Shown here: one piece after another, positions 3,757-32,454 of the stretch
Layout of the letters: every line of letters starts with the position of its first letter
Position numbering within the stretch: the first letter of the stretch is position 1
From: Pseudomonas marincola
Lineage (GTDB): Bacteria; Pseudomonadota; Alphaproteobacteria; Sneathiellales; Sneathiellaceae
DNA: 64,000 bases
NCBI GenBank assembly: GCA_036960775.1
Contig: JBALWO010000001.1
Coordinates: forward strand, 162,334-226,333
Direction of reading: 5' to 3'
Position numbers and translations under genes: made by a program
Notes under the pieces: model-generated
Databases searched by the model: none
What the model saw: only the letters and a program-made list of their open reading frames with translations
What the model was told of the DNA's origin: nothing

Positions 3757-3777
3757 ATCGTTTTTCTGAGAAAATTT

Positions 3778-3811
3778 AAGCCGCGCATCATTTTTTTGCG
3801 CGGCTTTTTTT
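3778..3811. terminator. Intrinsic terminator between the convergent ADH and DMT genes
   Basis: AAGCCGCGCA-TCATTTTTT-TGCGCGGCTT followed by TTTTT. Confidence 0.85.
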
Positions 3812-4673: not shown

Positions 4674-4700
4674 GAGAAGATCCTTCGATCCGGCAGGTGC

Positions 4701-5567: not shown

Positions 5568-5574
5568 AAGTCCC

Positions 5575-5589
5575 ATTGATATAAATGAT
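5575..5589. promoter_or_regulatory. LysR-type box (T-N11-A), copy 1
   Basis: ATTGATATAAATGAT directly upstream of the LysR start; 12/15 identical to the copy upstream of phnW. Confidence 0.65.
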
Positions 5590-5921
5590 AAAATAAACAA
5601 CTTGGATTTATATTATTGAGTGAGTTATTATAACGTCAAGCATAATTGCGACTGTGTTATGAAATTTGCTGGATATTGTGGGAGTATGTCGGCATAATTT
5701 GGAAATACTGCGCAATTGTAGTGGTTTCGTTCATAATTCCAATGTTTACACAAATAATTGGGCAATGGACGGAAGATTGGGAGATCGTCACAAAACGATA
5801 ACAAACTGTATCTAGAAGGTTGCTCTGTAATAGGTCAAACAATTGTCGCCTATTCATAAGAAAAATGAGAGCCAACTTGATACTTGTACATTTTATATGT
5901 CTAACAGAAGGGGTTTTGAAC

Positions 5922-6959: not shown

Positions 6960-6977
6960 TCGGAAAAGATGTCTAAA

Positions 6978-7010
6978 GGAGGCCTTCGCTTGATTTGAGC
7001 GGAGGCCTTC
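6978..7010 (+). terminator. Intra-operon hairpin after the SBP gene (mRNA stabiliser or partial terminator)
   Basis: AGGCCTTCGCT-TGATTTG-AGCGGAGGCCT (one G-U pair) followed by TCATTTT. Confidence 0.65.
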
Positions 7011-7054
7011 ATTTTAATCGCGGTCGCCCCTGCCGGATAAGTGTGAGCTATAGT

Positions 7055-16783: not shown

Positions 16784-17623
16784 ATGGGAGAATATGTTCG
16801 GCCGTCGGAACTGAATGAACTTTTTGCAGTCTTGCCGCAAAAAGACTGGAAGATTTTGGCCGGTGGCACAGATTTTTACCCTGCAAAAGTGGGGCAACCG
16901 CTTAATGATGATATTTTGGATATCACAAATATAAGTGTGCTCAACGAAATAACGGAAACTGAGCATTACTGGCATATAGGAGCAGTTGCGACTTGGAGTG
17001 ATATTGCCGCAGCGGAACTTCCCCCGTTGTTCGATGGATTAAAGTCTGCTGCCAAAGAAATCGGCGGTCGGCAAATTCAAAATGCGGGAACCCTTGGCGG
17101 TAATATCTGTAATGCTTCACCTGCCGCGGATGGTGTCCCGGTTTTATTAAGTCTCGATGCTGCTGTTGTTGTCTCGGACGGCCGTGAGGCTACTCAAGTC
17201 CCGCTGCAGGATTTTGTAACTGGGAACCGTGAAATCCAGCTGGAACGCGGTCAAATCATTACTGAAATTGTCATCCCTAAAGTCACAACTCCTCATTCTT
17301 CAGGTAAGTTCTTAAAACTTGGGTCGCGAGAATATCTTGTCATCTCCTTGGTTATGGCCGCAGCTGTGTTCGGGTGGAATTCGGCCGGTATTATAAGCCA
17401 TTGCCGGATATCAGTTGGTGCCTGCTCAAAAGTTGCTGCACGTCTGAAACGTTTAGAGGCTCTCATTATTGGCCGCGAGATTACGTCAGATTTTTCGGAT
17501 CTGTTGTCGGATGAACTTTTTTCAGAACTGACCCCCATTGATGATGTGCGAGCGAGCGGCGAATATCGCAAAGAAGCTGCAAAAGAAATTGTCTCTGATC
17601 TTTTGAAATGTTGGAGCCAATAG
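16784..17623 (+). CDS. Molybdenum hydroxylase FAD-binding subunit (NdhF/CoxM-like)
   Basis: 'LAGGTD', 'QIQNAGTLGGNICNASPAAD', 'DDVRASGEYR'. Confidence 0.92.
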   Translation: MGEYVRPSELNELFAVLPQKDWKILAGGTDFYPAKVGQPLNDDILDITNISVLNEITETEHYWHIGAVATWSDIAAAELPPLFDGLKSAAKEIGGRQIQNAGTLGGNICNASPAADGVPVLLSLDAAVVVSDGREATQVPLQDFVTGNREIQLERGQIITEIVIPKVTTPHSSGKFLKLGSREYLVISLVMAAAVFGWNSAGIISHCRISVGACSKVAARLKRLEALIIGREITSDFSDLLSDELFSELTPIDDVRASGEYRKEAAKEIVSDLLKCWSQ

Positions 17624-17624
17624 G

Positions 17625-20366
17625 ATGAGCGCAGCCATTAAATTCTTTGTAAATGGACAGCCGCGTTCCATAACAGCTGCGCCAGTTACACGCCTGTCTG
17701 ATGTTTTGAGGGACGACCTTGGATTAACGGGCACCAAAGTTGGATGTAATGCGGGGGACTGTGGTAGCTGCACAGTTCTATTGGACGGTGAACAGGTTTG
17801 CGCCTGCTTAACATCGGTTGCAAAAGTAGAAAACCGCGATGTCACAACCGTCGAAGGGCTGGCGGATAACGGGAAGTTATCGGCGCTGCAAAAATCATTT
17901 GAGCGTCACGGCGCCGTTCAATGCGGTATCTGTACACCCGGAATGTTGATCGCTGCGACCAGCTTGTTGGCGGCCGATCCAAACCCGTCAAAACGGCAAG
18001 TTGAAGATGCCCTTGGTGGCGTATTATGCCGGTGCACCGGATATCAGAAAATTGTAGATGCAGTTCTGGATGTAAATGCATCAGCTGTTGAAATTGCACC
18101 CGTCAGTGGGCAAGCGGTTGGAACGTCTATAGCCAAGTTAGACGCCAATGAAAAACTGACTGGGCTTGAAAAATACGGTGCAGACGACATACCCAAAAAC
18201 GCCCTTTGGGTACGGATATTACGCTCCCCCATTGCGTACGGTAGGATAACTCTTGGGGATGTAAAGTCTGCGGCAAAAACAATGACCGGTATTCTTGATG
18301 TGCTTAGCTGTGAAGATATTCCGTTTAACAGATTTGGCATATATCCCGTTGGCAAAGACCAACCCGTTCTCTCTGACGGTATCGTTCGCTACCGAGGGGA
18401 TGCGATTATTGCTGTTGTAGGGGACAAAACGGCTGTTCAAACGGCGAGATTAAGTGATTTCCCCGTTGAGATTGAAGCGTTAGCGCCAGTGATAGGGCTT
18501 GAGGCTGCAAGGGATCCAAACGCGGCTCAGCTTCATGCGGATAAACCTCAAAATATCTTGATCGATGGTCATGTAAAAAAGGGTGAGCTTAGCCGTGCTT
18601 TTGAGGGAGCTGCATCGGTTGCGAGCGGTGAGTTTGAGACCCGATTTGTCGAACATGCCTATATTGAACCTGAAGCGGGTTGGGCGCGCCGGGTTGACGA
18701 TCGCATTGAAGTTTATGTGACCACGCAGGCCGTTCATATGGACCGCGATGAAATTGCAAGTGTCCTCAAAATTCCAAAAGACCGCGTTCGGGTTGTACCA
18801 ACTGCTTGCGGTGGTGGTTTCGGTGGAAAATTAGATGTGTCTGTTCAGCCAATTTTAGCGGTTGCAGCTATGAAGTATGACCTGCCAGTTGCCTATGTTT
18901 ATGAGCGACCCGAAAGCATGGCCGCGAGTACAAAGCGTCATCCTTCTCAGATTTCAACTAAATTTGCAGCCGATAAAGAGGGGTTGCTAATGGCAACTGA
19001 AATGGCAGCAGATTTTGATACTGGCGCCTATGCATCGTGGGGGCCGACAGTCGCAGGCCGGGTTCCTGTCCACGGAAGTGGCCCCTATTTTGTCCCAAAC
19101 GTTCATGTAAGTGGGCGCGGATTGTTTACCAATGGGCCGCCTGCGGGTGCTTTTCGCGGGTTTGGTGTTCCGCAAGCCGCCATTGCCCACGAATGTATGA
19201 TGGATGATCTGGCGGAGGATCTTGGTATTGATCGCCTCGAAATTAGGCTGCGGAATGCAATCAGGCCGGGGCAGCAAACAGCGACGGGGCAAGTTCTAAA
19301 AGCGAGTGCGGGAATGGGGCCCTGTCTTGAAGCCCTGCAATCAAGTTGGAACACGCTGTTAAAGTCAGCAGATCAATTCAATAAAGCGCAAACTGGTGGA
19401 CTTCGGCGGGGTGTCGGCGTTGGCGCCATGTGGTATGGCATCGGAAATACGTCTTTGTCCAATCCCTCCACAATGGAAGTGGGCCTCAGCACAGATGGTA
19501 AATTGATATTGTTCAATGGGGCCGTTGATATTGGCCAAGGATCTAATACCATTATGCCGCAAATCTGCGCGGATGCACTTGGGCTGCCGGTGGCCGAGTT
19601 TACTTACATTATGGGTGATAGTGATTTAACGGAAGACGCCGGAAAAACATCTGCCTCTCGCCAGACATTTGTCTCCGGCAAGGCAGTTGAACTTGCAGGA
19701 CTTGATTTGCGGGCCAAAATTTTACGGCACGTAAATGCGGGTGACGATGCCGAGCTCAGCCTAAATGGGACAATCTTATCTGTCGAAGATGACGCAACCC
19801 GCCATGAAATTGACCTTTCCGCCCTTGAAGCTGGGCTTAAAGATATGGTGTTTATGGGCACGGGCAGGTTCGATCCACCAACAACGCCGCTTGATAAAAA
19901 TGGACAAGGAACCCCATACGCCACATACGGATTTGCCGCGCAAGTGGCACTGGTGGAAGTTAACGTAAAACTGGGAACAACCAAAGTATTGAAGATTGTT
20001 GCGGCCCACGATGTTGGGCGCGCCATTAATCCACAACAGGTGGAAGGGCAAATCCACGGCGGAATAGCGCAAGGACTAGGGCTTGCATTGATGGAAGAAT
20101 TTGTGCCGGGCGTTACTGAAAATCTGCATGATTATTTAATTCCGACCATCGGCGATATGCCTGAAATGGAAGTGATAATCGTTGAGGAAAGCGAACCACT
20201 GGGACCGTTCGGTGCAAAAGGCGTCGGAGAGCCCGGCTTGGTTCCAACACCGCCCGCCATTTTTGGCGCAGTTCGTCATGCGACAGGAGTTCGTGTTACC
20301 GAAGCGCCGTTGTTGCCGCACCGACTGAAGGCCGCTCTCAATAAGCTGGAGAAACGCAATGACTGA
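17625..20366 (+). CDS. Molybdenum hydroxylase, fused [2Fe-2S] and molybdopterin subunits; probable nicotinate (pyridine-carboxylate) dehydrogenase
   Basis: 'GCNAGDCGSC', 'QCGIC', 'CRC', 'CGGGFGGK', 'AFRGFG', 'SASRQT', 'KGVGE'. The family call is firm; the substrate is inferred from the adjacent hnr. Confidence 0.85.
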   Translation: MSAAIKFFVNGQPRSITAAPVTRLSDVLRDDLGLTGTKVGCNAGDCGSCTVLLDGEQVCACLTSVAKVENRDVTTVEGLADNGKLSALQKSFERHGAVQCGICTPGMLIAATSLLAADPNPSKRQVEDALGGVLCRCTGYQKIVDAVLDVNASAVEIAPVSGQAVGTSIAKLDANEKLTGLEKYGADDIPKNALWVRILRSPIAYGRITLGDVKSAAKTMTGILDVLSCEDIPFNRFGIYPVGKDQPVLSDGIVRYRGDAIIAVVGDKTAVQTARLSDFPVEIEALAPVIGLEAARDPNAAQLHADKPQNILIDGHVKKGELSRAFEGAASVASGEFETRFVEHAYIEPEAGWARRVDDRIEVYVTTQAVHMDRDEIASVLKIPKDRVRVVPTACGGGFGGKLDVSVQPILAVAAMKYDLPVAYVYERPESMAASTKRHPSQISTKFAADKEGLLMATEMAADFDTGAYASWGPTVAGRVPVHGSGPYFVPNVHVSGRGLFTNGPPAGAFRGFGVPQAAIAHECMMDDLAEDLGIDRLEIRLRNAIRPGQQTATGQVLKASAGMGPCLEALQSSWNTLLKSADQFNKAQTGGLRRGVGVGAMWYGIGNTSLSNPSTMEVGLSTDGKLILFNGAVDIGQGSNTIMPQICADALGLPVAEFTYIMGDSDLTEDAGKTSASRQTFVSGKAVELAGLDLRAKILRHVNAGDDAELSLNGTILSVEDDATRHEIDLSALEAGLKDMVFMGTGRFDPPTTPLDKNGQGTPYATYGFAAQVALVEVNVKLGTTKVLKIVAAHDVGRAINPQQVEGQIHGGIAQGLGLALMEEFVPGVTENLHDYLIPTIGDMPEMEVIIVEESEPLGPFGAKGVGEPGLVPTPPAIFGAVRHATGVRVTEAPLLPHRLKAALNKLEKRND

Positions 20367-21777
20367 TAAAAGTGATACTGCGTTAATTCGCTGTGATGCC
20401 TGTCCTGTTCTTTGCCGTATTCGAGATGGCCAGACCGGGGCTTGCGATCGATACGGAAATACCGATGGCAACTTGATCCGTGTAGATCCTTTGGTTGTTA
20501 TGCAAAAAACGGGAAAAAAAGTTGAGCTTGCAGACCAAGGGCAAGGGTGGGGCGGTAATGTGGTCACTGAGGAAAGCCATTTTGTAACAGGCGTCGGATC
20601 CGGCACAACTTATCCAGATTATAAACCAGCTCCTTTCATTATCGGTTCCAACGTGGCTGGCGTTGATACGGTGACAGTCGTATCCGAAGGTGTATTTAGC
20701 TATTGCGGTGTGAAAGTTAAGATCGATACAGATCGTTATATCGGGCCGGAAACTGCCCCCGTATTCGCAAACGGCGAACAAGTCGGACATGTCACGACAG
20801 CGGAATATGGCAGTCAGATGCTGTCACTCGGCGGTGTTCGGCATCTAACGGGTGGGTCAAAAAAAGAAGGCCGGATTACGTGCGATACATTGCTCAATCT
20901 ATGTAATAAAAATGCTGTTACGTTGGATGTGAAAGGGGGCGCGCAAGTCATTGTGCAAGCCGGGATGCCACCAATTATTGACGGCGATAAAGAAGAGCGT
21001 ATGCGCGTGGGCTGTGGGTCTGCAACTATTGGAATATTTGCACCGCAATGGCACGGAAAAGTAGACGAAGTTATTGTGGTCGATGATCATATAACGGGCG
21101 TTTTAACAGAACACCAAGCGGGTCAGTTCTTGGAGATGCCACATTCTGGCATTCGGGTACGGGGCCGCAAATCCACCCCGGGCCGATATTTTCAAGTGGC
21201 TGACCATGGTTCCGGCTGGGGCGGCACAGATATTATCGAACCATTGGATATTATTTCCAAAATTGATGCGAAAAAAGCCTATCCCGGTATGACATTGTTG
21301 ATGGTCTCCACAACGGGGCAAGATAGCGGCTGGTTTGTCTTAAACGAAAACCTAGTCCCAGAACCCTCACCAATGCCGGACAATATCCAAGAGATTGTCA
21401 ATCGCATCGCTGAAAACTGCGAGCCTGCATTGTGCACCGTTTTGTTTATGGCAGGGGCGGGTGGATCTTTGCGCGCTGGCGTTACGGAAAACCCCGTAAG
21501 ACTGACCCGCTCAGTAAAAGAAAAGCTGACAAAAGTGACATCGGGCGGCGCACCAACTTACATTTGGCCGGGCGGCGGGATCACAATGATCGTTGATGTT
21601 ATGGATATGCCTGAAAACTCATTTGGCTATGTTCCAACACCGGCACTGGTTGCCCCCATTGAGTTTGCTTTGACACTTGCCGACTTTGAAGCGTTAGGCG
21701 GACATATGAAAAGCATAATTCCGCTAGAGAGCGTGCTGGCAAACCGAGACGTCACGTGGCTTGAGGAAAAGGGCTAA
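20359..21777 (+). CDS. hnr: 6-hydroxynicotinate reductase family Fe-S flavoprotein
   Basis: N-terminal CDACPVLC-x9-C; 'VTGVGSGTTYPDYKPAPFI', 'RMRVGCGSATIG', 'WPGGGIT', 'GYVPTPALVAPIEF' (family recognised from recall). Confidence 0.8.
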   Translation: MTDKSDTALIRCDACPVLCRIRDGQTGACDRYGNTDGNLIRVDPLVVMQKTGKKVELADQGQGWGGNVVTEESHFVTGVGSGTTYPDYKPAPFIIGSNVAGVDTVTVVSEGVFSYCGVKVKIDTDRYIGPETAPVFANGEQVGHVTTAEYGSQMLSLGGVRHLTGGSKKEGRITCDTLLNLCNKNAVTLDVKGGAQVIVQAGMPPIIDGDKEERMRVGCGSATIGIFAPQWHGKVDEVIVVDDHITGVLTEHQAGQFLEMPHSGIRVRGRKSTPGRYFQVADHGSGWGGTDIIEPLDIISKIDAKKAYPGMTLLMVSTTGQDSGWFVLNENLVPEPSPMPDNIQEIVNRIAENCEPALCTVLFMAGAGGSLRAGVTENPVRLTRSVKEKLTKVTSGGAPTYIWPGGGITMIVDVMDMPENSFGYVPTPALVAPIEFALTLADFEALGGHMKSIIPLESVLANRDVTWLEEKG

Positions 21778-21780
21778 CGA

Positions 21781-22650
21781 ATGGTTGGAACGGCTTCAGC
21801 GAAAATAATGGAAGATGGGAAAAGGCTGCATTTACAGCACGGTCCCATTGATATTATTGCTGAGGCGTTTGGTACGGACGAGGAAGTTGAAAAAGCTTAC
21901 TTCCAAGGATCCGCTTTTTTTCAATCCATATTACAAGACCTTGTGATGGATTTAGATGTTCTGCGAGCGCCCGTTACAAGAAGACCTCCAAGGCGATTGG
22001 GTGCGATCGCCGCTGACATGTATGATGCAGCCTCGCGGTTTTCTGAAAATCGGTATGTGACGCCCATGGCAGCTGTTGCGGGCTCAGTCGCGGATGCGGT
22101 TCTGCAAGCCATGAGTGCTGGGCGACAACTCCATAAACTATATGTAAATAATGGCGGCGATATAGCTCTTCATCTAGAGGGGAATGCGCTGTTCAAGGGC
22201 GGAATAGTGAACAACCAAGATTTACCGTCAGTAAACGCAAATTTCGAACTGACTGTGAATAATAAAGTTGGCGGGATTGCTACATCTGGCTGGCGGGGGC
22301 GTTCCCTGTCTCCTGGCATTGCCGATGCTGTAACGGTCCTAGCATCAACCGCAGCCCTTGCCGATGTGGCAGCGACGATTATTGCAGGTGATGTGATAGC
22401 ATCTGATCTCTCGATCATTCAACGACCCGCCATAACTGTCCGCGATGACACTGATCTTGGTGACATGTTGGTGACGACACAGGTCGGAAAATTAAAGAAA
22501 GAAACCTGTATTTCAGCCCTTGAGAGGGGCCTAAATACAGCAGAAAAATTAAAACAGGCTGGACTGATACACGGGGCTTATCTTGCGCTGCAAAATGATG
22601 TCGTCAGTTCGACCGGAATGAACAAACTTTTACAAAAGGAAGTGGCATGA
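21781..22650 (+). CDS. UPF0280 family protein (ApbE-like superfamily)
   Basis: 'LHLQHGPIDI', 'TPMAAVAGSVAD', 'VNNGGDIA', 'GIATSGWRGRSLSPGIADAVTV'. Confidence 0.85.
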   Translation: MVGTASAKIMEDGKRLHLQHGPIDIIAEAFGTDEEVEKAYFQGSAFFQSILQDLVMDLDVLRAPVTRRPPRRLGAIAADMYDAASRFSENRYVTPMAAVAGSVADAVLQAMSAGRQLHKLYVNNGGDIALHLEGNALFKGGIVNNQDLPSVNANFELTVNNKVGGIATSGWRGRSLSPGIADAVTVLASTAALADVAATIIAGDVIASDLSIIQRPAITVRDDTDLGDMLVTTQVGKLKKETCISALERGLNTAEKLKQAGLIHGAYLALQNDVVSSTGMNKLLQKEVA

Positions 22651-23234
22651 GCGAACTTGTCAAAGTACGAAAAATCTCAACACAAGTTGAAGAGATTTAT
22701 CATGAAGGCGGACCTGTAAGAACAGATCCTATTTTGCGCGGCTCTATCGTTGCTGTGATCGATAACCCCTATGCGGGCGCTTACGTGGAAGACATCACTC
22801 CACTGATGGAGGGATTAAAACCGTTGGGTTTGAAGCTTGCAAACCAGCTGATTAAAGCTCTTGGCGGCGATGCCTCGAAAATTACCAGCTACGGCAAAGG
22901 CGCTATCGTTGGCGAAGATGGAGAGTTGGAGCATGGTGCAACTTGGCATGTGGCCGGAGGCTACGCCATGCGGGAAGCCTTAGGGGAAGCATTTGCCATT
23001 GTGCCCTCTAGTAAAAAAGTAGGCGGCCTTGGGGCTACGTTGGAAATTCCAATTTCTCATAAGGATGCGTCCTATGTTCGCAGTCATTTTGACGCCATGC
23101 AGATCGGTGTTCCCGATGGTCCACGTCGCAGCGAAATCGTGTTCGCTTTGGTGATGACAACAGGTGGGCGCGTGCATGCGCGGCTAGGCGGTCTTGCTGC
23201 TGATGAAATTTCAAAATTTGACGGACTTCGTTGA
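22647..23234 (+). CDS. DUF1185 / AA_synth family protein
   Basis: 'NPYAGAYVED', 'YGKGAIVGEDGELEHGA', 'IPISHKDASYVRSHFD', 'DGPRRSEIV', 'GRVHAR'. Confidence 0.85.
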   Translation: MSELVKVRKISTQVEEIYHEGGPVRTDPILRGSIVAVIDNPYAGAYVEDITPLMEGLKPLGLKLANQLIKALGGDASKITSYGKGAIVGEDGELEHGATWHVAGGYAMREALGEAFAIVPSSKKVGGLGATLEIPISHKDASYVRSHFDAMQIGVPDGPRRSEIVFALVMTTGGRVHARLGGLAADEISKFDGLR

Positions 23235-23254
23235 TTTAAAAGTTTGGGTGGATC

Positions 23255-25288
23255 ATGAACGGAAGAGTAATTGGCGTAGATGTTGGCGGAACTTTCACTG
23301 ATTTGATTTCGGTTGATCCGAATACAGGATCGATAGAAGTTACCAAAGTGCCGACCACTCTGGACAACCAAGCCTTTGGCGTAATCGCGGCCATCAAAAA
23401 CGTGGGAACTGATCTTACGAAAGTCGATGCCATTAGTCATGGAACCACGACAACGACAAACGCACTGCTTGAGCGGAAAATCGCTAAAACGGGACTGATC
23501 ACCACCAAGGGTTTCCGTGACGTGTTGGAGCTTGGTCGGCGAACGCGACCTTCGCCCTACGGATTGAAGGGCCAGTTCAAGCCGCTTATCTCTCGTGATG
23601 TCCGTATGGAAGTCTCCGAACGGATTGATGCAGACGGCGGGATTGTGATCCCGTTGGACGAGATAGAGCTCAGATCAAAAATTGAAGACCTGTTGGCTGC
23701 TGGCGTTGAGAGTTTGGTCATCCATTTTCTGCATTCCTATAAAAACTCAGATCATGAAAAACGCGCAGCCACAATTGCAAAAGAAATGTGGCCCAATGCG
23801 TTTGTCACCGCTGGGCACGAAATTCTATCTGAATACCGCGAATATGAGCGGGGAACCACGGCTGCCATTAATGGCGCGATCCGCCCCGTTCTCGATAAAT
23901 ACATCAACCGTTTGCAGGGCGAGCTCGCCGCTGAAGGGTTCGCGCATGATCTGCTGGTGATGCAAGGTAACGGCGGAAGTGTGTCGGCGCGTGCCGTCGC
24001 CCACAGCGCTGTTAGTACGGTGATGTCAGGCCCTGCCTCTGGTGTAATGGCCGCGGCGGCCACCTGCCGTGCAGTAGGTATTGATAAAGTTATAACCTAC
24101 GACATGGGCGGAACCAGCTCAGATGTTGGCTTGGTTGAAGGCGGCGTCCCTCAAGTTACCTCAGAGTTAGATCTTGAATACGGAATGCCCATTCATGTTC
24201 CCATGGTGGATGTTCATACGATTGGCGCTGGCGGGGGATCAATTGCTTTCGTGAATGATGCCGGAATGTTGCAAGTTGGCCCAGAAAGCGCCGGTGCACT
24301 TCCAGGTCCCATATGTTATGGACGGGATGGGAAGAGGCCAACCATTACAGACGCAAATCTGATATTGGGTCGGCTCGATCCAGAAGCTCTCTTCTCGGTT
24401 GATAATCCGGTATCGTTGGATCAAATTCGCAGTATTTTTGAGACTGACATTGGCGCGCATTTTGGAATGAATGCGGAACAGGCCGCTTCTGCGGTTTTGC
24501 AAGTGGCTAACAACAAAATGGCTGGCGCGATCCGAATGGTCAGCCTGTCACGGGGCCACGATCCTAGGGATTTCTCGCTCTTTGCATTTGGCGGAGCAGG
24601 TCCGCTGCACGGAACGTCGCTTGCCAGTGAGCTGTCGATCCCGAATGTTGTGTTTCCGGCAAAACCCGGCATTACCAACGCGCTTGGGTGTGTCGTCTCT
24701 GATTTGCGGCACGACTTTGTGAATACTGTAAACACACCGCTTGCATCCCTAGATATTACAGCTGTTCACGAGATTATTAATCGCCAAATATCCGACGGCA
24801 AACAGATGATTGAAAATGACAATGTCCCCATCGAGGAGATGGAATTTTTATATTCTGCAGATATGCAATTTCAAGGTCAAAGCCATATGTTGGGTGTTGA
24901 AATTAGTGGGCCAAACGTCACGGTGGATGAGCTGCAAATGCGCTTCGATGAAGTTTATTGGGCTAGATTTGCGGTGGAGCTTCCTGAGATCAAAGCTGTT
25001 CTTGTGAACCTTCATACAGCAGTCATTGGACGCCGTAAAAGCTTCCCACTTTCTGTTTTAGCAGGATCTGATCAGGCTGAGAATTTGGAAGATGCCCTGC
25101 GTTGCATGCGGCCAGTTATGTTCGATGGCGAGTGGATAGATACGCCGGTTTATACGCGCGGCAAGTTGCCACTAGATTTGAATATAATCGGACCGGCAAT
25201 CATTGAGCAGCCGGATACAACTATTGTGGTGGAGCCGGGTAATACGGTGACGCTTGATGAAATTGGCAACTTGATTGTGGAGGTGTGA
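23255..25288 (+). CDS. ATP-dependent hydantoinase/oxoprolinase, A (ATPase) subunit
   Basis: 'DVGGTFTD', 'HGTTTTTNALLERK', 'SGPASG', 'DMGGTSSD', 'TIGAGGGS', 'GPESAGALPGP'. Confidence 0.93.
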   Translation: MNGRVIGVDVGGTFTDLISVDPNTGSIEVTKVPTTLDNQAFGVIAAIKNVGTDLTKVDAISHGTTTTTNALLERKIAKTGLITTKGFRDVLELGRRTRPSPYGLKGQFKPLISRDVRMEVSERIDADGGIVIPLDEIELRSKIEDLLAAGVESLVIHFLHSYKNSDHEKRAATIAKEMWPNAFVTAGHEILSEYREYERGTTAAINGAIRPVLDKYINRLQGELAAEGFAHDLLVMQGNGGSVSARAVAHSAVSTVMSGPASGVMAAAATCRAVGIDKVITYDMGGTSSDVGLVEGGVPQVTSELDLEYGMPIHVPMVDVHTIGAGGGSIAFVNDAGMLQVGPESAGALPGPICYGRDGKRPTITDANLILGRLDPEALFSVDNPVSLDQIRSIFETDIGAHFGMNAEQAASAVLQVANNKMAGAIRMVSLSRGHDPRDFSLFAFGGAGPLHGTSLASELSIPNVVFPAKPGITNALGCVVSDLRHDFVNTVNTPLASLDITAVHEIINRQISDGKQMIENDNVPIEEMEFLYSADMQFQGQSHMLGVEISGPNVTVDELQMRFDEVYWARFAVELPEIKAVLVNLHTAVIGRRKSFPLSVLAGSDQAENLEDALRCMRPVMFDGEWIDTPVYTRGKLPLDLNIIGPAIIEQPDTTIVVEPGNTVTLDEIGNLIVEV

Positions 25289-25289
25289 C

Positions 25290-27023
25290 ATGAGTTCACT
25301 TGATCCTATTACTCTTGCCGTTATTCAAAACGGTCTCATCCAAGTTTGCAACGAAATGGATTTGGCTTTCGTGCGAGCGGCATTCAGTCCGGTAATTTCA
25401 GAAGCGCTAGATCGCTCAGATGGAATTTATGCCGCTGATACTGGTGAGCTGATTGCCCAAGGTGAACTTGGGCTTCCGGTCTTCGTTGGCACAATGCAAT
25501 TTTCCACTCAAGCGGTGATCGAGCGGTCAAAAAATGTCAAACCCGGCGACATCTACATAGTAAACGATCCCTACCTTGGGGGAACGCATTTGATGGATGT
25601 TAAGTTCGTGCGGCCTTTTTTCTACAAAGGAAAACTCTGGTCGTGGCTTGCAAATACGGGGCATTGGCCTGATCTGGGCGGTGCTGTACCAGGCGGATTT
25701 TCCGCTAACGCCACAGAGGTTGAGCAAGAAGGACTGCGTCTGCCGCCGGTTAAGCTGTTTAAAGAGGGGGTTTTGGATGAAGAAATACTATCCATAATCT
25801 TGTCCAACATTCGAATTGCGGATCAACGTATTGGCGATATTAAGGCGCAAGCTGCAGCGCTTGCCGTGGGCGAGCAACGTCTGACAGATTTACTGGATAA
25901 ATACGGCGAGACCGTCGTTACTGACGCCATTTCTGAACTTAAAATCAGGGCATCAGAGCAAATGAGATCCAAAATATCGGCAATCCCTGATGGTGACTAC
26001 CAAGGCATCGCTTATGTGGATTCAGATGGCGTTGTGAACGAACCTCTTAAAATTGATATGAAAATCACCTCAAAAGGGGATGAGCTATTTTTCGATATGT
26101 CCGGATCTAGCGCACCTTGTATGGGACCCATGAATTCGGTGATTGCCACAACAAAATCATCGGTTTATTTGGCTATTAAACATATTTTCCCTGAAATTCC
26201 CATAAACGCGGGAACGTTTGAGCCTTTAAATATCAAAGATCCAGTAGATACGTTCCTTTATGCAAAATATCCGCGGCCAGTTTCTGGATGCGCTGCTGAA
26301 GTTAGCCAACGCATCGCCGAAGCGGTGTTTAACGCGCTGGTAGATGTTATTCCAGAGTTGCTGTTTGCAGCACCAGCGGGGACCTCTGGCAATCTAGCTA
26401 TTGGCGGGTATGATCCTAAAAAAGACAAAGCCTATGTCATGTATGTTATTTCCGGTGGTGGCTATGGTGGCTACTTGGAAGCAGATGGCTTATCCAACGG
26501 CTGTTCTACGATCGGGATTTCAAAAACGACCCCCATTGAGGTGATGGAGCAATATTATCCCATAATTTTTGAAGAGTATTCTCTTCATGAAGGCTCTGGC
26601 GGGGCCGGGGAAATGCGCGGCGGTTTCGGTGTGAATTACAAAATTAAACTGCGGCGTGGATCAGCTCGGGCCTCAATGGTAATGGATCACGGCCGGTATG
26701 GGCCGCTTGGCGCGCTCGGCGGGGAGAACGGAGGGCTTAACACGGTTAAAGTAACGACCAACGGCGAAGATTATATTCCGCCCCATCTGTCCAAGGATCA
26801 GGATATCCAAATTAATGTGGGGGACAGTGTATCTGTTTCAACTCCGGGCGGCGGCGGCTACGGCAACCCGCTGCTGCGTGATCCTGAAAAAGTCGCAAGC
26901 GATGTGCAGTTAGGATATTATACGCTAGAACAGGTGTCAGCCCGCTTTGGTGTTGTCTTAGATCCTGCGGATTTATCCGTTAAACGGGCGGAAACTAAGC
27001 AATTGAGAGCTAGTCGATCTTAA
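25290..27023 (+). CDS. ATP-dependent hydantoinase/oxoprolinase, B (hydrolase) subunit
   Basis: 'FSPVISE', 'NDPYLGGTHLMD', 'HWPDLGG', 'SGGAGEMRGG', 'TPGGGGYG'. Start set to ATG 25290. Confidence 0.93.
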   Translation: MSSLDPITLAVIQNGLIQVCNEMDLAFVRAAFSPVISEALDRSDGIYAADTGELIAQGELGLPVFVGTMQFSTQAVIERSKNVKPGDIYIVNDPYLGGTHLMDVKFVRPFFYKGKLWSWLANTGHWPDLGGAVPGGFSANATEVEQEGLRLPPVKLFKEGVLDEEILSIILSNIRIADQRIGDIKAQAAALAVGEQRLTDLLDKYGETVVTDAISELKIRASEQMRSKISAIPDGDYQGIAYVDSDGVVNEPLKIDMKITSKGDELFFDMSGSSAPCMGPMNSVIATTKSSVYLAIKHIFPEIPINAGTFEPLNIKDPVDTFLYAKYPRPVSGCAAEVSQRIAEAVFNALVDVIPELLFAAPAGTSGNLAIGGYDPKKDKAYVMYVISGGGYGGYLEADGLSNGCSTIGISKTTPIEVMEQYYPIIFEEYSLHEGSGGAGEMRGGFGVNYKIKLRRGSARASMVMDHGRYGPLGALGGENGGLNTVKVTTNGEDYIPPHLSKDQDIQINVGDSVSVSTPGGGGYGNPLLRDPEKVASDVQLGYYTLEQVSARFGVVLDPADLSVKRAETKQLRASRS

Positions 27024-27984
27024 GCCCTAGTTTTTTGCTGAGATTTGTTAGCGGCGTTGCGATCAGCCCTTTTGGAAGTAAAACCACACTGGCCATAAAC
27101 GTAATACCGAGGATGAGGATCCAGTAGTCACCAAATATTTCGGAAAGCCAGCTTTCTGCAATGCGAGTGGCGATTGCACCAAGGAAAGCGGCGAGCAAGA
27201 TTTCTTTGCCGCCAATGGCAACCCAAATCAGAACTTCTGTGGATAATGTAAATCCAATCAGTGTTGGTGATGCGAAACCATCAATGGTCACAAACAAGGC
27301 GCCTGCGAGACCTGCGATTGCAGCGCTGAGGCAGAAGACACTGAGTTTCAGTTTTAAAATACTGAAACCGAAATAGGCTAATCTGTCAGGATTTGTTTTA
27401 ATAGCCGTTAGTAAAATACCATAATCAGACCGCACCAGATATGAGAGACCAAGGGCCACCGAAAAAACAATAGTCCACAGGGCGTAAAAGGCGGGAAGAC
27501 TATCCCACAGCTCAAACGAATAGCCGAACGCACCGAGATTGAGAGGCGGAATATCGAGTAACCCATTGTATCCGCCAAGCGCATACCAATTACTCATCAA
27601 CCGTTCGAGAACAATGGCGATGGCGAGCGTGACAATGGCAAGATATGCGCCGTTGATCCCTTTACCCGCAAATAAAAATGATCCCAGTAGGGCCGCAAAT
27701 GCAGCGGCAATGATCACGGCGGATAGCAGGCCAATATAGCTGTTCATTAACAAGGGAGATATCATCCCCTTCGTTGTGACGGCCATGACGTATGCGCCGA
27801 TACCAAAGAAGATGGCTTGTCCCAAGCACAGAATGCCGCCGTACCCCCAAACAAGGGAGAGAGACAAGGCAAACAAGCCATAAACTAAATAGTAATTAAA
27901 TTGGCTAACCCAGTAATCGCCAACCATAAGGGGCAGCACGGCCAAAATTGCAAATGTGAGAATTAGGGGAAGTTTATTTTTCAT
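27010..27984 (-). CDS. Amide/urea/branched-chain-type ABC permease (UrtC/LivM-like)
   Basis: 'WGYGGILCLGQAIFFGIGAY', 'GAYLAIVTLA', 'VLIWVAIGG'. Start set to ATG 27984. Confidence 0.88.
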   Translation of the reverse strand: MKNKLPLILTFAILAVLPLMVGDYWVSQFNYYLVYGLFALSLSLVWGYGGILCLGQAIFFGIGAYVMAVTTKGMISPLLMNSYIGLLSAVIIAAAFAALLGSFLFAGKGINGAYLAIVTLAIAIVLERLMSNWYALGGYNGLLDIPPLNLGAFGYSFELWDSLPAFYALWTIVFSVALGLSYLVRSDYGILLTAIKTNPDRLAYFGFSILKLKLSVFCLSAAIAGLAGALFVTIDGFASPTLIGFTLSTEVLIWVAIGGKEILLAAFLGAIATRIAESWLSEIFGDYWILILGITFMASVVLLPKGLIATPLTNLSKKLGLKID

Positions 27985-28831
27985 TCTTTCCTCCCAATAT
28001 GCCGTTGGGGCGCAGACGAATAACCAAGATGGCAAGAATAAAGACGGCAATTTGTGCAGCAACCGGTGAGATCCAAACCGTTAGTAAACTGTTGGTTCCG
28101 CCAACGGCACCGCCGCCAACAAGCACGCCTGCAAGTGGGCCTGCACCGCCCACAAGAATTGATAAAAATCCAGGGATCAAATAACCCAATCCCATTTGAG
28201 GATCAACACTGATGGTTGGTGCAATTAGGGCGCCCGCAAGTCCTGCAAGGGCAGTCCCCACCACAAAACTCCATCGATATAGTTTGCGAGTATTTATGCC
28301 AAGACCGGCGGAGGTGTCGGGCCTCGCGATGACAGCACGTGCCATTAAGCCAAAATCGGTTTTAAGAAATAGCCAGAAAGTGCCCGCGATCAACGCAATG
28401 GATATTCCCATGACAATCAAGCGGTACATTGGATATGAAAAATCGCCGAGAACTAGCGTTGTATCAAGGGGGCTTGTAACACTTTGTGCCTCTGGACCGA
28501 AAACGAGGACAATACCCTGTTTCAAGGCAATAGAGAGACCCCAAGTTGCCAATATTGTATCGAGCGGGCGCAAATAAATGTGGCGGATTAATAAGGCTTC
28601 AATTATGAAACCTAGAAAACCCACGACCATAGGAGCAAGAACTAAGCCTGCAACAAAGGGCAGCCCCGCCGATTGTGTCAGAACCATCACATAGGCCCCG
28701 ATCATAAACAACTCACCATGGGCCATATTGATGACGCCCATCATGCCAAAGACAATCATCAAGCCCAATGCAATTAACACAAGGATTAAGACATAGGACA
28801 TGGCGTCGAATAGAGGGATTATTATATCCAT
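27974..28831 (-). CDS. Amide/urea-type ABC permease (UrtB/LivH-like)
   Basis: 'GMMGVINMAHGELFMIGAY', 'LDTILATWG', 'ILVGG'. Confidence 0.9.
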   Translation of the reverse strand: MDIIIPLFDAMSYVLILVLIALGLMIVFGMMGVINMAHGELFMIGAYVMVLTQSAGLPFVAGLVLAPMVVGFLGFIIEALLIRHIYLRPLDTILATWGLSIALKQGIVLVFGPEAQSVTSPLDTTLVLGDFSYPMYRLIVMGISIALIAGTFWLFLKTDFGLMARAVIARPDTSAGLGINTRKLYRWSFVVGTALAGLAGALIAPTISVDPQMGLGYLIPGFLSILVGGAGPLAGVLVGGGAVGGTNSLLTVWISPVAAQIAVFILAILVIRLRPNGILGGKNEK

Positions 28832-28842
28832 AATTGCCGCCC

Positions 28843-29544
28843 CTAAATTGTCAAATAACGATGCAGCAGGGCATCGTCTTGGTTTAATTCAGCCATACTA
28901 CAACTTGCCATTAGCCGGCCGTTTTCCATAAATAAGATGTCTTCAGCCATTGTTTTTACCATATGGACATTCTGTTCGACGAGCAGGATCGTAAGTCCGG
29001 TTTCAGTCGCGATTTGAGACAGTTTCAATCCAATTTCATGGACAATGCTGGGCTGAATACCTTCTGTGGGCTCGTCCAGAAGCAGAACCTCCGGGCGGGT
29101 CATTAACGCCCGTGCCATAGCCAGTATTTGTTGCTGACCGCCTGAAAATGTTCCGGCTTTTTGATCGCGTCGTTCGTGTAAAATTGGGAACCAGTCATAT
29201 ATTTGTGGCAGCAGTGATAAGTTTTTGATTGAGGAGCCTAGCGCCGCTAAGCGTAGGTTTTCATATACTGAAAAATCTTCAAACACTTCCCGGCCTTGGG
29301 GGACATAGCCAATTCCGGATTTAGATATCAAATAAGTAGGCAAGTTTTCAAGCGGGCTGCCTTTAAGCAGAATTTGCCCTGATTTTATAGGTATCAAGCC
29401 CATAATAGCTTTAAGGAGGGTTGTTTTTCCCATTCCATTTCGACCCATGAGTGCCGTGATTTGGCCTTTCGGCAGTGTGAATGTGAAATCATTGAGGACC
29501 ATTGCTTCGCCGTAACCGGCTTTCAATTGTTTTATTTCAAGCAT
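28843..29544 (-). CDS. ABC ATPase (UrtE/LivF-like)
   Basis: GRNGMGKT, 'YVPQGREVF', 'SGGQQQ', 'LLLDEPTEGIQPSIV'. Start set to ATG 29544 (8-bp overlap with the upstream gene). Confidence 0.9.
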   Translation of the reverse strand: MLEIKQLKAGYGEAMVLNDFTFTLPKGQITALMGRNGMGKTTLLKAIMGLIPIKSGQILLKGSPLENLPTYLISKSGIGYVPQGREVFEDFSVYENLRLAALGSSIKNLSLLPQIYDWFPILHERRDQKAGTFSGGQQQILAMARALMTRPEVLLLDEPTEGIQPSIVHEIGLKLSQIATETGLTILLVEQNVHMVKTMAEDILFMENGRLMASCSMAELNQDDALLHRYLTI

Positions 29545-30274
29545 GGTTTGAGCCTGCATTTCCAAAATACAATTCTTGAACATCTTTATCATTGCGGATC
29601 GTTTGAAAATCGCCGGATTTAAGGATGCTACCTCGTGCCATAACGGCAAGTGGGCATTGAAGTTGTTCTATAAAGCCAATGTCATGCTCAATCACCAACA
29701 CTGTAACGTCACCTTCCTTATTTATGCTTTTGATGAGCTCCGCAGTGGCAGCCGTTTCTATGGTAGTCATGCCGGCTGTGGGCTCGTCCAATAAAACCAG
29801 TTTGGGCGACTGGGCTAAAATCATTCCGATTTCTAACCATTGTTTTTCACCATGAGATAATTGATCGGCGATTAAGTCGGATTTTTCAGTCAAATTGATC
29901 AAGGACAATATTTCAATCAGTGACTGCTTGACCTGTTTTCGTGACTGAGAAGAACTTGACTGGAGAGTAGGAACCTTCAGATTTTGAAAAACGGTGAGTT
30001 CTGAAAAAATGGCAGGAACTTGAAATTTACGGCCCATGCCCATGCGGGCAATTTCCTGAGCCGGCAGGGGCGTGATGTCCACGCCTTCAAACAAGATAGT
30101 CCCCATAGTGGGTGCGAATGTTCCGCTGATGAGGTTAAAAATCGTTGATTTACCACAGCCATTGGGTCCTATAAGGGCGGTTAAGCTGCCTTTTTCAAGA
30201 CTTAGCGAAAAGTCGTCTACTGCTTTTAGGCCACCGAATCTCTTGGTAAGGGAATGAAGCTCAAGAAATGACAT
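29537..30274 (-). CDS. ABC ATPase (UrtD/LivG-like)
   Basis: GPNGCGKS, 'GRKFQ', 'LSHGEKQWLEIG', 'LLDEPTAG'. Start set to ATG 30274. Confidence 0.9.
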   Translation of the reverse strand: MSFLELHSLTKRFGGLKAVDDFSLSLEKGSLTALIGPNGCGKSTIFNLISGTFAPTMGTILFEGVDITPLPAQEIARMGMGRKFQVPAIFSELTVFQNLKVPTLQSSSSQSRKQVKQSLIEILSLINLTEKSDLIADQLSHGEKQWLEIGMILAQSPKLVLLDEPTAGMTTIETAATAELIKSINKEGDVTVLVIEHDIGFIEQLQCPLAVMARGSILKSGDFQTIRNDKDVQELYFGNAGSNHA

Positions 30275-30286
30275 GTTAGTTACTCT

Positions 30287-30445
30287 TAGACATAAGTAGA
30301 CATACGAAACTGAGCGTCGAAACATCAGTAAACAAACGAAATTTTTATAGGCGTACAAAAGGTAATGCCCATTTTTAGCTCATAATCCCAAATAAAACTT
30401 ATTTTTTTAGTCGCAGCACTTGAAGTAGATCCGAAATTAGACATA
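30287..30445. repeat. Three copies of TAGACATA in the divergent promoter region
   Basis: Exact copies at 30287-30294, 30297-30304 and 30438-30445. Confidence 0.6.
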
Positions 30446-30531
30446 AAGATCGCATCTGAGGTCTAGATGTAAATCATTTTTTATGATTTATTATTGTTTG
30501 TAAACGAATAAAATATAAATGGGGGTCGTCG

Positions 30532-31701
30532 ATGTTAAAACTTACACGTAGAAAACTTCTCGTATCAGCAAGTGCCGCAGCCGCGGTAAGTAGTATCGGT
30601 ATGCCAGCGATAGCAGCAGGCAAAACAATTAAAATTGGTGCAGTGCAGCCTTTCTCTGGCGGGTTGGAGCTTTTTGGCAAACAAGCCCAAATGGGTCTTG
30701 ATCTAGCGACTGCAGAAATTAATGCGGCTGGCGGTATCATGGGCCATAAGGTCGAAATGCTATATGAAGATAACAAAACGGACCCAAAAACATCAGTTGA
30801 GCGTGCCCGCAAAGTTATTCAGCGCGACGATGTGATGGCTGTGTCAGGCCCGATTACGTCTGCTGCGCGTGATGCAATGGCAGGAACCATGAAGCGTTTG
30901 AAGACGCCCCTTCTATACGCAACGAATTATGAGGGCGGCATCTGCGATCGTTATTTATTCTCGTTTAATACCGTGCCTAATCAAGATACAGCGCCGCTTA
31001 TTCCTTATCTAAAGGATCAAGGTATTGGAAACAGCTATTACATGTTTGGTGCCGATTATGTTTGGCCGCGCAATATGTTTAAGGCTGCGGGCGAGATGAT
31101 CAAGCAGGTGGGCGGACAAGCTCTCGGCGAAGAATACACACCGTTTGGGGTAAAAGATTTCTCGTCTGTTATTCGGAAAATTGCAGATTCTGGCGCGAAA
31201 ATCCTATTGTTCGCGCTTCCAGGCGCAGATGGTATTACTTTCATTAAACAAGCTGAAGAATTTGGTTTGATGAAAAAGGTCACCATCGCATTTTTGGGGT
31301 TTGCTGAAACTTATCTCGGTGCGTTTGGCGCAGGGAAGGGTGAGGGCATGTATGCAGGCCTTCCGATGGTTGCCAATTCTAAAGAAGCTGGTGTGCAGGA
31401 GTTTGTATCGAAAATCCGCAAACGCGAAGGTGATGATGCCATCGTCTCATTCTACGTTATGACCCATTACAATTCCCTAATGGCTGTAAAGGCTGGAATG
31501 GAAAGAGCTGGCAAAGTGGACAAAGAAAGCCTAATCGACGGTATGGCGGGACTTTCGTTCGACATTCCCACAGGTAAAGCAAGCATTACAGCAGAAGATC
31601 ACCATGTGGCCATGAATATGTATATTGGCAAAACAGGCGGCGGTACGCTGAATGTCGAGAAATCACTGGGACTGATTACGCCTTCTCCTCAGTGCAGCTG
31701 A
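30532..31701 (+). CDS. Periplasmic binding protein, AmiC/UrtA family, Tat-exported
   Basis: Twin-arginine signal 'TRRKLL'; 'PFSGGLELFG', 'YATNYEGG', 'GADYVWPR'. Confidence 0.88.
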   Translation: MLKLTRRKLLVSASAAAAVSSIGMPAIAAGKTIKIGAVQPFSGGLELFGKQAQMGLDLATAEINAAGGIMGHKVEMLYEDNKTDPKTSVERARKVIQRDDVMAVSGPITSAARDAMAGTMKRLKTPLLYATNYEGGICDRYLFSFNTVPNQDTAPLIPYLKDQGIGNSYYMFGADYVWPRNMFKAAGEMIKQVGGQALGEEYTPFGVKDFSSVIRKIADSGAKILLFALPGADGITFIKQAEEFGLMKKVTIAFLGFAETYLGAFGAGKGEGMYAGLPMVANSKEAGVQEFVSKIRKREGDDAIVSFYVMTHYNSLMAVKAGMERAGKVDKESLIDGMAGLSFDIPTGKASITAEDHHVAMNMYIGKTGGGTLNVEKSLGLITPSPQCS

Positions 31702-31725
31702 ACCTAGAAAATATGTGAGGATAAA

Positions 31726-32454
31726 ATGCAAACTCAAAAAATAACAAAAGACCTCAGCGATGTTATGCCTTTGGCATTCTGCGCTTTAGATCTAAAGGCT
31801 GATTGTAAGCGGGTTGGGCTGGTTATTGTTGACGAAATCAATGGGTTTGCAACGGTGGGGGCGGGAAATCTCGCCCCGCCAACTCCCAATGAACAAGTGT
31901 CAACCATGGTTTCAGAAACTGATCAGTTGGCGCGTGATTTTACAGGGGAAAATTGGCCAATACTTGCGTTTTTGGACACTCATGTTCCCGGCAAGGAAGA
32001 GCCGCCCTATCCGCCGCACTGCGAAAGCGGGACCGGTGAAGAAGAGCTGGTGCCTGAGCTGAAATGGCTAGAAGATGATGCGAACACGACATTGGTGCGC
32101 AAGGATTGCATCAATGGTTTCATCGGTGCGTTTGCTGATGACGGAACAAATGCAGTTGTTGAATGGGTAAAGGCCAATGGTATAACGGATTTGTTGGTGG
32201 TGGGTATCTGCACTGATATTTGCGTGATGGATTTCGTGCTTACCAGTTTAAGCGCCCGTAATCACGAAATGATGCCGGGACTTACCAATATTCATGTTTA
32301 CGACAAAGGGTGTTCCACATACGATTTACCCAAAGAAGTCGCGCTGGAAGCTGGCTTGCCAGCAGTTGCCGCCCATCCTCAAAATATTACACATTATATG
32401 GGGCTTTATTTTATGGCTTCGCGCGGTGCAAATCTGGTGAATAATATTATCTAA
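31726..32454 (+). CDS. Cysteine hydrolase (isochorismatase fold), probable nicotinamidase of the plant NIC1 type
   Basis: Catalytic D ('IVDEING'), K ('RKDCING') and C ('GICTDICV'); metal ligands 'FLDTH' and 'YPPHC'; strong recalled resemblance to Arabidopsis NIC1. Confidence 0.8.
   Translation: MQTQKITKDLSDVMPLAFCALDLKADCKRVGLVIVDEINGFATVGAGNLAPPTPNEQVSTMVSETDQLARDFTGENWPILAFLDTHVPGKEEPPYPPHCESGTGEEELVPELKWLEDDANTTLVRKDCINGFIGAFADDGTNAVVEWVKANGITDLLVVGICTDICVMDFVLTSLSARNHEMMPGLTNIHVYDKGCSTYDLPKEVALEAGLPAVAAHPQNITHYMGLYFMASRGANLVNNII

Follow-up and report, generated by a model that had tools for sequence, protein, structure and literature searches.

A HydAB-type lactamase as the putative ATP-dependent replacement of enamidase in a nicotinate catabolic operon of a marine Sneathiella

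This study concerns a stretch of 64,000 nt from the genome of a marine Sneathiella (contig JBALWO010000001.1 of assembly GCA_036960775.1, positions 162,334-226,333 of the forward strand; the whole stretch is called the window here), in which seven tightly coupled plus-strand genes (16784-27023) encode a molybdenum (Mo) hydroxylase in two parts, a homologue of 6-hydroxynicotinate reductase (Hnr), a UPF0280 protein, a DUF1185 protein and the two subunits, HydA and HydB, of a HyuAB-type enzyme of the hydantoinase/oxoprolinase/caprolactamase family. The reductive pathway of nicotinate degradation, which proceeds through 1,4,5,6-tetrahydro-6-oxonicotinate (THON), has been textbook knowledge since the work on Eubacterium barkeri, with enamidase as the accepted enzyme of ring opening. 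With a probability of roughly 0.7, we read the locus as a nicotinate catabolic operon of this THON type, probably fed by nicotinamide, in which HydAB replaces enamidase; that HydAB itself performs the ring-opening step is held to be about as probable. The comparison of genomes described below strongly supports this variant as a non-orthologous replacement of enamidase in a known pathway, and as a widespread one that is the majority form in Alphaproteobacteria. A preliminary description of the window had already suggested that the A/B pair opens the reduced pyridone lactam, a route that its author did not recall as described, and full-text literature searches likewise gave no description of a HyuAB-type enzyme in a nicotinate pathway.

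Enamidase is absent from the source genome (3.79 Mb in 113 contigs, 98% complete). The query was a 399-residue amidohydrolase from a related Hnr locus (L015:16051-17250, minus strand), which matches E. barkeri enamidase (PDB entry 2VUN) with 385 bits over its full length. A tblastn search of the whole genome at E of 1e-3 or lower returned no enamidase, as did a separate search of the genome, and a profile hidden Markov model (HMM) of 26 enamidase orthologues gave at most 34 bits on any six-frame open reading frame (ORF), as against more than 600 bits for orthologues and about 280-320 bits for a class of paralogues known from other genomes. The 16 matches to Amidohydro_1 in the genome all lie on other contigs than that of the window, in agreement with the earlier remark that the window holds no gene of the amidohydrolase superfamily; the whole-genome search that had been proposed along with it thus extends the absence of enamidase to the genome.

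The survey of hnr neighbourhoods for mutual exclusion of enamidase and the A/B pair, which had been proposed as well, was made on two sets of genomes. For the first, 80 Hnr-encoding loci were fetched with 10-kb flanks and their genomes were then searched whole; HydB orthologues (at least 60% identity) were separated by a clear gap from paralogues (at most 42%), and enamidase orthologues were taken at 53% identity or above, the paralogue class lying at 39-44%. The core of FAD-binding subunit, fused Fe-S/molybdopterin subunit, Hnr and UPF0280 is nearly universal in these loci, and their flanks contain HydA and/or HydB orthologues in 20 cases (HydA 56-63%, HydB 63-78% identity), enamidase in 27 and both in none. 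HydA/HydB share an operon with hnr in about 20 loci, in several of which they directly follow UPF0280. At the level of the whole genomes (n = 80), HydB alone is found in 37, enamidase alone in 36, both in two and neither in five, all five of which are metagenome-assembled genomes (MAGs). The second set comprised 401 genomes drawn evenly from the same class, Alphaproteobacteria, each searched for Hnr, HydB (orthologues at 65% identity or more) and enamidase (72% or more). Hnr is present in 63 of these, 39 of which have HydB only and 24 enamidase only, with no genome holding both and none holding neither (Fisher's exact p = 6e-18 for the complementarity, uncorrected for phylogeny). Moreover, HydB orthologues are nearly confined to Hnr-positive genomes (39 of 42), occurring in only three of the 338 Hnr-negative genomes, and enamidase occurs in only two of the 338. 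In G327, one of the three HydB-bearing exceptions, the contig ends inside the UPF0280 gene, and hnr probably lies past the contig end.

The two types are also intermingled in the phylogeny. In three families of the class sample, some genera have the one type and some the other. Along the tree built from the 81 Hnr proteins, the assignment to enamidase or HydAB changes at least ten times, as compared with about 25 times when the labels are shuffled, so the swap happened many times. Hnr proteins from clusters with enamidase and from clusters with HyuAB are intermixed on this tree, and Hnr and the Mo hydroxylase of both cluster types are equally similar to the proteins of the window. The missing enamidase, the complementarity of HydB and enamidase and the repeated switches together support, by sequence comparison, the ring-opening role that the preliminary description had suggested for the A/B pair.

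The sequences of HydA and HydB are consistent with such a role. HydA has its best matches in the PDB with N-methylhydantoinase (7HK5, 469 bits) and the α-subunit of caprolactamase (6YRA_A, 380 bits), and HydB with 6YRA_B (273 bits), followed by 7HK5 (255 bits). In alignment with these chains, HydA carries the ATP motifs DVGGTFTD (phosphate-1), DMGGT (phosphate-2) and GALPGP (adenosine), the motifs being those defined for the hydantoinase/oxoprolinase family (PMC8453981). Asp41, His99 and His124 of the caprolactamase subunit CapB (6YRA_B) align with identical residues of HydB, and the Asp of its H-x-x-D motif, which is D101 in the numbering of the paper and residue 102 as counted in the PDB chain, is also conserved; these metal-site residues are essential, as their mutation inactivates caprolactamase (PMC8453981). 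Both HydA and HydB are encoded in single copy in the genome of the window (tblastn).

A first characterized parallel is the pair formed by CapAB from P. jessenii (PDB entry 6YRA) and OplAB from P. putida, which share with HydAB the two-subunit A/B architecture, the ATP motifs and the metal-site residues, and which hydrolyse ε-caprolactam and δ-valerolactam, that is, unstrained seven- and six-membered lactams, at the cost of ATP (PMC8453981, PMC11033972). For OplAB, which shares 80-86% identity with CapAB, ATP-dependent hydrolysis of δ-valerolactam has been shown in vitro, lactams of this kind being notably unreactive (PMC11033972); the unassisted hydrolysis of caprolactam is endergonic by 23 kJ/mol (PMC8453981). 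Since THON is also a six-membered lactam, its ATP-driven opening by HydAB is plausible by analogy. HydAB differs from these enzymes in that the similarity reaches only 273-380 bits, in that the gene order is A-B rather than B-A, and in that the pair sits in an N-heterocycle catabolic operon, where the presumed substrate is an enamide lactam with a carboxylate. A second parallel is IaaCE of anaerobic indoleacetate degradation in Aromatoleum/Azoarcus, for which PMC8453981 summarizes a proposed role of this HyuAB-type enzyme in opening the lactam of 2-oxoindoleacetate, a partly oxidized N-heterocycle, within a catabolic cluster; the pathway and substrate are different, that role is likewise a proposal, and the likeness to HydAB is one of description. 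The third, N-methylhydantoinase 7HK5 together with the HyuAB 5-substituted hydantoinases, contains the best PDB match of HydA and the second best of HydB, but in 7HK5 the A and B parts are joined in one chain of 1288 residues, and no genes of a creatinine or hydantoin pathway lie near hydAB in the window.

From these homologies we infer the substrates, the use of ATP and the products of the HydAB route as follows. Nicotinamide would be imported by the amide-type ABC transporter encoded beside the operon and deamidated by an isochorismatase-fold amidase, and the resulting nicotinate would be converted to 6-hydroxynicotinate by the Mo hydroxylase, as is suggested by its homology to E. barkeri nicotinate dehydrogenase (Ndh). 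Hnr would then produce THON, a six-membered enamide lactam, as expected from its homology and the conserved cluster, and HydA and HydB would open this lactam, a step otherwise carried out by the metal amidohydrolase enamidase, with HydA spending ATP on activation of the lactam carbonyl and the metal site of HydB carrying out the hydrolysis, by analogy to caprolactamase, OplAB and 5-oxoprolinase. The enamine product, 2-(aminomethylene)glutarate, would lose ammonia to give 2-formylglutarate, perhaps spontaneously and perhaps with the aid of an accessory protein. The enamidase reaction is regarded as reversible; if it is, coupling to ATP would make the ring opening irreversible.

Several observations weigh against assigning the ring opening of THON to HydAB. 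HydA and HydB score 507 and 341 bits against the NCBIfam caprolactamase models (NF050156/NF050157), for which the cut-offs are 1000; with scores so far below the cut-offs, the substrate cannot be read from homology, and by sequence HydAB is a separate subfamily and not caprolactamase. Two genomes of the first set hold both systems, G040 fully and G068 with a HydB of 60% identity that bears an in-frame stop. The statistics of the complementarity include no correction for phylogeny beyond the count of switches, some genomes have hydB unlinked from hydA, and two genomes of one family (G222 and G372) carry a HydB orthologue without Hnr, so that the clade is not strictly tied to Hnr and may serve a different N-heterocycle route in these two.

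The last of these points bears on an alternative akin to one offered in the preliminary description, which had allowed for an N-substituted or otherwise modified pyridine as the real substrate: the cluster might degrade a pyridine or N-heterocyclic acid other than nicotinate, N-substituted or differently carboxylated, so that the lactam opened by HydAB would not be THON. HydAB is only 35-40% similar to characterized lactamases and falls below the NCBIfam cut-offs, its orthologues stand beside a different Mo hydroxylase without Hnr in G222, and the binding protein of the window is of the amide/urea type, as against the Liv type of most related clusters. We nevertheless consider this explanation unlikely, because Hnr and the hydroxylase do not separate by cluster type either on the tree or in their similarity to the proteins of the window, because the enamidase-type clusters include those of organisms for which THON-type nicotinate degradation has been shown (PMC3511419), and because the amide-type transporter and the isochorismatase also accompany enamidase-type clusters (L046 and L050). 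A modified pyridine as substrate is therefore not favoured over nicotinate.

Replacement of enamidase by HydAB would likewise be mistaken if HydAB used ATP for a different reaction, for instance carboxylation or phosphorylation in the manner of acetone and acetophenone carboxylases, and the ring were opened by an unrecognized hydrolase, either DUF1185 or one of the 16 other amidohydrolases. The hydantoinase/oxoprolinase family does include carboxylases (PMC8453981), DUF1185 has no known function and the Amidohydro_1 proteins are encoded elsewhere in the genome. However, the best matches are lactamases and hydantoinases, the carboxylases scoring much lower than caprolactamase and N-methylhydantoinase in the searches, and neither a gamma subunit nor any other additional subunit of a carboxylase is encoded; DUF1185 co-occurs with enamidase and is missing from many HyuAB-type genomes and thus cannot be the replacement; and the exact one-or-other pattern of HydAB and enamidase would be left unexplained. 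This explanation is accordingly regarded as quite improbable. That HydAB is a housekeeping 5-oxoprolinase or hydantoinase merely adjoining nicotinate genes, as its generic family annotation and the unlinked hydB of some genomes might suggest, is scarcely credible given that hydAB is translationally coupled within the operon and that a genome of the same genus without Hnr also lacks HydB, and the housekeeping oxoprolinase identity is ruled out by the distribution of HydB (39 of 63 Hnr-positive as opposed to three of 338 Hnr-negative genomes).

Some details of the surveyed genomes may be added. In a group of HyuAB-type genomes (loci L001, L009, L025, L027, L043 and L047) hydA, near 17.5-20.3 kb, ends the operon after the ABC transporter genes. 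Unlinked hydB orthologues (74-76% identity) lie elsewhere in the genome in G034:C92, G040:C2, G043:C1, G045:C12, G047:C44 and G048:C10, and in L107 (G017:C25) the unlinked hydB adjoins another Mo-hydroxylase-like gene. The locus of G222, which has no Hnr in its genome, reads MarR, Mo-hydroxylase large subunit, HydA (61%), HydB (68%) and BKACE (L113, G222:C26, 9076-15793). Proteins with 57-59% identity to HydB form a sister group, which was found only in Hnr-negative genomes (G089, G405, G091 and G380) and presumably represents a related lactamase with another substrate. Possible pseudogenes occur in otherwise complete systems, namely an hnr split into two frames (G119:C1:2969814-2971204), a hydB with an in-frame TGA (G128:C1:2796767-2798446) and an enamidase gene with an in-frame TAA (G435:C15:25526-26686), together with the 60% hydB with a TAA in the enamidase-type genome G068 (G068:C41:52634-54277).

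A further group of enamidase-type loci, comprising L053 and the Bradyrhizobium loci L052, L055, L063-L066, L072, L074 and L076, is without the genes for the FAD-binding and fused hydroxylase subunits. L053 encodes a 1189-residue MoCoBD and cytochrome c protein (3517-7086), and similar ORFs cluster in ten loci, in a clustering of the 80 loci that was crude owing to spurious antisense ORFs in GC-rich genomes and was used only to locate enamidase and NicB-like genes. Here the initial step of the pathway seems to have undergone a non-orthologous swap as well, the second such case.

The features of the locus are collected in Table 1. The ORF map agrees with the seven genes and the spacings listed in the preliminary description, and the families it had named were recovered by Pfam (the FAD, Fe-S/Mo, DUF1185, HydA and HydB proteins) and NCBIfam (UPF0280). 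The last spacing holds for a HydB that starts at the ATG at 25290, which lies 8 nt after the ribosome-binding site GGAGGTG and aligns with residue 1 of CapB; the ORF listing also contains a longer alternative with a TTG start at 25275. In scans for promoters and terminators the counts were the same as for shuffled sequences, and these scans were not used. The genes flanking the locus are unrelated (UDG and GDPD on the upstream side, DUF1232 and phosphonate genes on the downstream side).

Table 1. Features of the putative nicotinate catabolic locus, with coordinates in the window and the spacing to the preceding gene of the operon.
Feature	Position	Strand	Length (aa)	Spacing (nt)	Matches and remarks
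FAD-binding subunit, xanthine-dehydrogenase-family Mo hydroxylase (NdhF-like)	16784-17623	+	279		Pfam FAD_binding_5 133 bits, CO_deh_flav_C 51 bits
Fused 2Fe-2S and molybdopterin subunit (NdhS-L-M-like), presumed nicotinate 6-hydroxylase	17625-20366	+	913	+1	
Hnr homologue (6-hydroxynicotinate reductase)	20359-21777	+	472	-8	N-terminal Cys-rich motif
UPF0280 protein	21781-22650	+	289	+3	NCBIfam NF003322 318.8 bits (cut-off 290)
DUF1185/AA_synth protein, type 1 clade, accessory	22647-23234	+	195	-4	Pfam PF06684 232 bits; PDB 3BYQ ('uncharacterized protein DUF1185') 197 bits
HydA, ATP-binding α-subunit of a hydantoinase/oxoprolinase/caprolactamase-family lactamase	23255-25288	+	677	+20	Pfam Hydant_A_N, Hydantoinase_A (287 bits), Hydant_A_C
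HydB, metal-site β-subunit of the same lactamase; proposed tetrahydro-6-oxonicotinate ring opener	25290-27023	+	577	+1	Pfam Hydantoinase_B 526 bits
ABC transporter permease (Liv/Urt type)	27010-28062	-			Pfam BPD_transp_2 97 bits
ABC transporter permease (Liv/Urt type)	27974-28831	-			Pfam BPD_transp_2 111 bits
ABC transporter ATPase	28843-29649	-			Pfam ABC_tran 117 bits
ABC transporter ATPase	29537-30358	-			Pfam ABC_tran 108 bits
Periplasmic binding protein, urea/short-amide branch; proposed nicotinamide (or nicotinate) binder	30532-31701	+			Pfam Peripla_BP_6 282 bits; divergent from the minus-strand ABC genes
Isochorismatase-fold amidase	31726-32454	+	242		Pfam Isochorismatase 67 bits

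Orthologues of the FAD-binding subunit (41-52% identity) lie upstream of hnr in most related loci. The 913-residue hydroxylase protein contains the Pfam domains Fer2, Fer2_2, Ald_Xan_dh_C (hammerhead), MoCoBD_1 and MoCoBD_2, and is tiled colinearly by three chains of E. barkeri nicotinate dehydrogenase (PDB entry 3HRD), NdhS (3HRD_D) at residues 5-147, NdhL (3HRD_A) at 163-570 and NdhM (3HRD_B) at 594-909, which cover it end to end and confirm the fusion of S, L and M that had been noticed earlier. The Hnr homologue gave no Pfam family and no useful PDB match even at lax thresholds, and has thousands of homologues at 65-80% identity that are named 6-hydroxynicotinate reductase by their sources, the best named relatives being from Sneathiella species. 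Its link to E. barkeri Hnr runs through Bradyrhizobium homologues: it is 67% identical to the homologues in Bradyrhizobium clusters, and a member of the Bradyrhizobiaceae cluster is reported to be 42% identical to E. barkeri Hnr (PMC3511419). UPF0280, for which no Pfam match was found even at E = 5 and the only PDB match was 2O34 at 21.6 bits, comes immediately after hnr in almost all of the 80 loci, whichever ring-opening enzyme is present, and behaves as an obligate companion of Hnr.

The DUF1185 proteins of the Hnr loci (that of the window and others such as L015:12346-13499, L042:12391-13547 and L050:12317-13470) form two well supported clades. Type 1, which includes the protein of the window, comes after UPF0280 whether the cluster is of the enamidase or the HyuAB type. 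Type 2 occurs in every one of the 27 loci whose flanks hold enamidase, often directly beside enamidase, but in only three HyuAB-type loci. In the class sample, DUF1185 is present in all 24 enamidase-type genomes as compared with 22 of the 39 HyuAB-type genomes. Five HyuAB-type genomes are devoid of any DUF1185. DUF1185 was considered as a substitute for enamidase and as a deaminase or helper specific to HydAB, and was rejected in both capacities since every enamidase-type genome has it along with enamidase whereas 17 of the 39 HyuAB-type genomes lack it. Its occurrence better fits a partner of enamidase-type enzymes, and enamidase and DUF1185 may have been displaced together by HydAB. Paralogues of enamidase at 39-44% identity adjoin paralogues of DUF1185 in five genomes (G045:C5:142368-145238, G046:C173:10170-11969, G447:C7:28191-29932, G130:C14:2828-4840 and G303:C63:7268-9125), which suggests a general partnership of enamidase-like and DUF1185 proteins.

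The minus-strand genes at 27010-30358, convergent with hydB, encode two BPD_transp_2 permeases and two ABC ATPases. The two ATPase ORFs overlap by 113 nt as listed, and the true start of the one at 28843-29649 probably lies downstream of the listed TTG at 29649. The periplasmic binding protein has its best PDB matches with urea-binding proteins (136-150 bits) and AmiC (69 bits), but it is not UrtA, for which the NCBIfam model gives 205 bits against a cut-off of 493; these genes answer to the amide-type ABC transporter of the preliminary description. A homologue of the binding protein (66% identity) is found with its transporter in the enamidase-type locus L046, and the permease at 27010-28062 is kept at 70-71% identity in two congeneric species. 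As regards the nicotinamidase-like enzyme of the same description, the isochorismatase fold was recovered by Pfam, whereas the PDB matches to nicotinamidases are weak (PncA 3PL1, 28.7 bits; nicotinamidase 2WT9, 22 bits), and the source names of its homologues are generic, some being 'nicotinamidase-related amidase'. Inspected by eye, VIVDE, DTH...PPHC, RKDCINGF and GICTDICV in the amidase fit what we take to be the Asp-Lys-Cys triad and the Asp/His metal site of PncA. The gene adjoins the cluster in two congeners and is also found in the enamidase-type L050 (67% identity). The protein is probably a nicotinamidase that would supply nicotinate to the pathway, and the fold, the motifs read by eye and the conserved neighbourhood are what point to roles in the transport and deamidation of nicotinamide. 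The layout of 13 genes, including the amide-type transporter and the isochorismatase, is kept whole in two complete congeneric genomes. A further congener (G426) is without Hnr, HydB, enamidase and DUF1185, which makes the locus as a whole an accessory trait in this genus.

As regards the known THON clusters, PMC3511419, citing Alhapel et al. (2006), gives AZC_2804-2790 of A. caulinodans and blr3818-3830 of B. japonicum as proteobacterial counterparts of the E. barkeri cluster, and PMC3511419 and PMC9304392 describe the cluster as conserved in Azorhizobium caulinodans and Bradyrhizobiaceae and the THON route as shown biochemically in A. caulinodans. The two conserved unknowns of the proteobacterial cluster correspond to UPF0280 and DUF1185. 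The locus in the window resembles these clusters in combining a Mo nicotinate hydroxylase, Hnr, an ABC transporter, UPF0280 and DUF1185. It differs from them in that enamidase, their third defining enzyme, is absent from both locus and genome and a HyuA/HyuB pair is present instead, as well as in the fusion of the S, L and M parts of the hydroxylase, the urea/amide-branch binding protein and the attached isochorismatase-fold amidase.

In conclusion, enamidase is missing from about 60% of the Hnr-positive Alphaproteobacteria covered here, which have a specific HyuAB clade in its stead. A wider scenario can be put forward only tentatively, in which HydAB is the majority ring opener of THON in Alphaproteobacteria and has repeatedly replaced a module of enamidase and type 2 DUF1185, with ATP turning a reversible ring opening into an irreversible one and allowing marine oligotrophs such as Sneathiella to obtain nitrogen from traces of nicotinamide by means of the dedicated amide-type transporter and a NIC1-like nicotinamidase. 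The proposed function of HydAB is directly testable in cultured Sneathiella species and in enamidase mutants of rhizobia. If confirmed, it would provide a natural ATP-dependent δ-lactamase acting on a functionalized ring, of interest for the biocatalysis of lactams and nylon monomers, and it would correct pathway predictions, as metabolic reconstructions would call the pathway incomplete in such genomes. It would also be a clear-cut example of non-orthologous displacement, with a hydrolase that needs no energy input and an enzyme that consumes ATP alternating in one role, raising the question of what selects for the ATP cost, and it would give a first physiological role to a large and widespread group of 'hydantoinase/oxoprolinase family' proteins.

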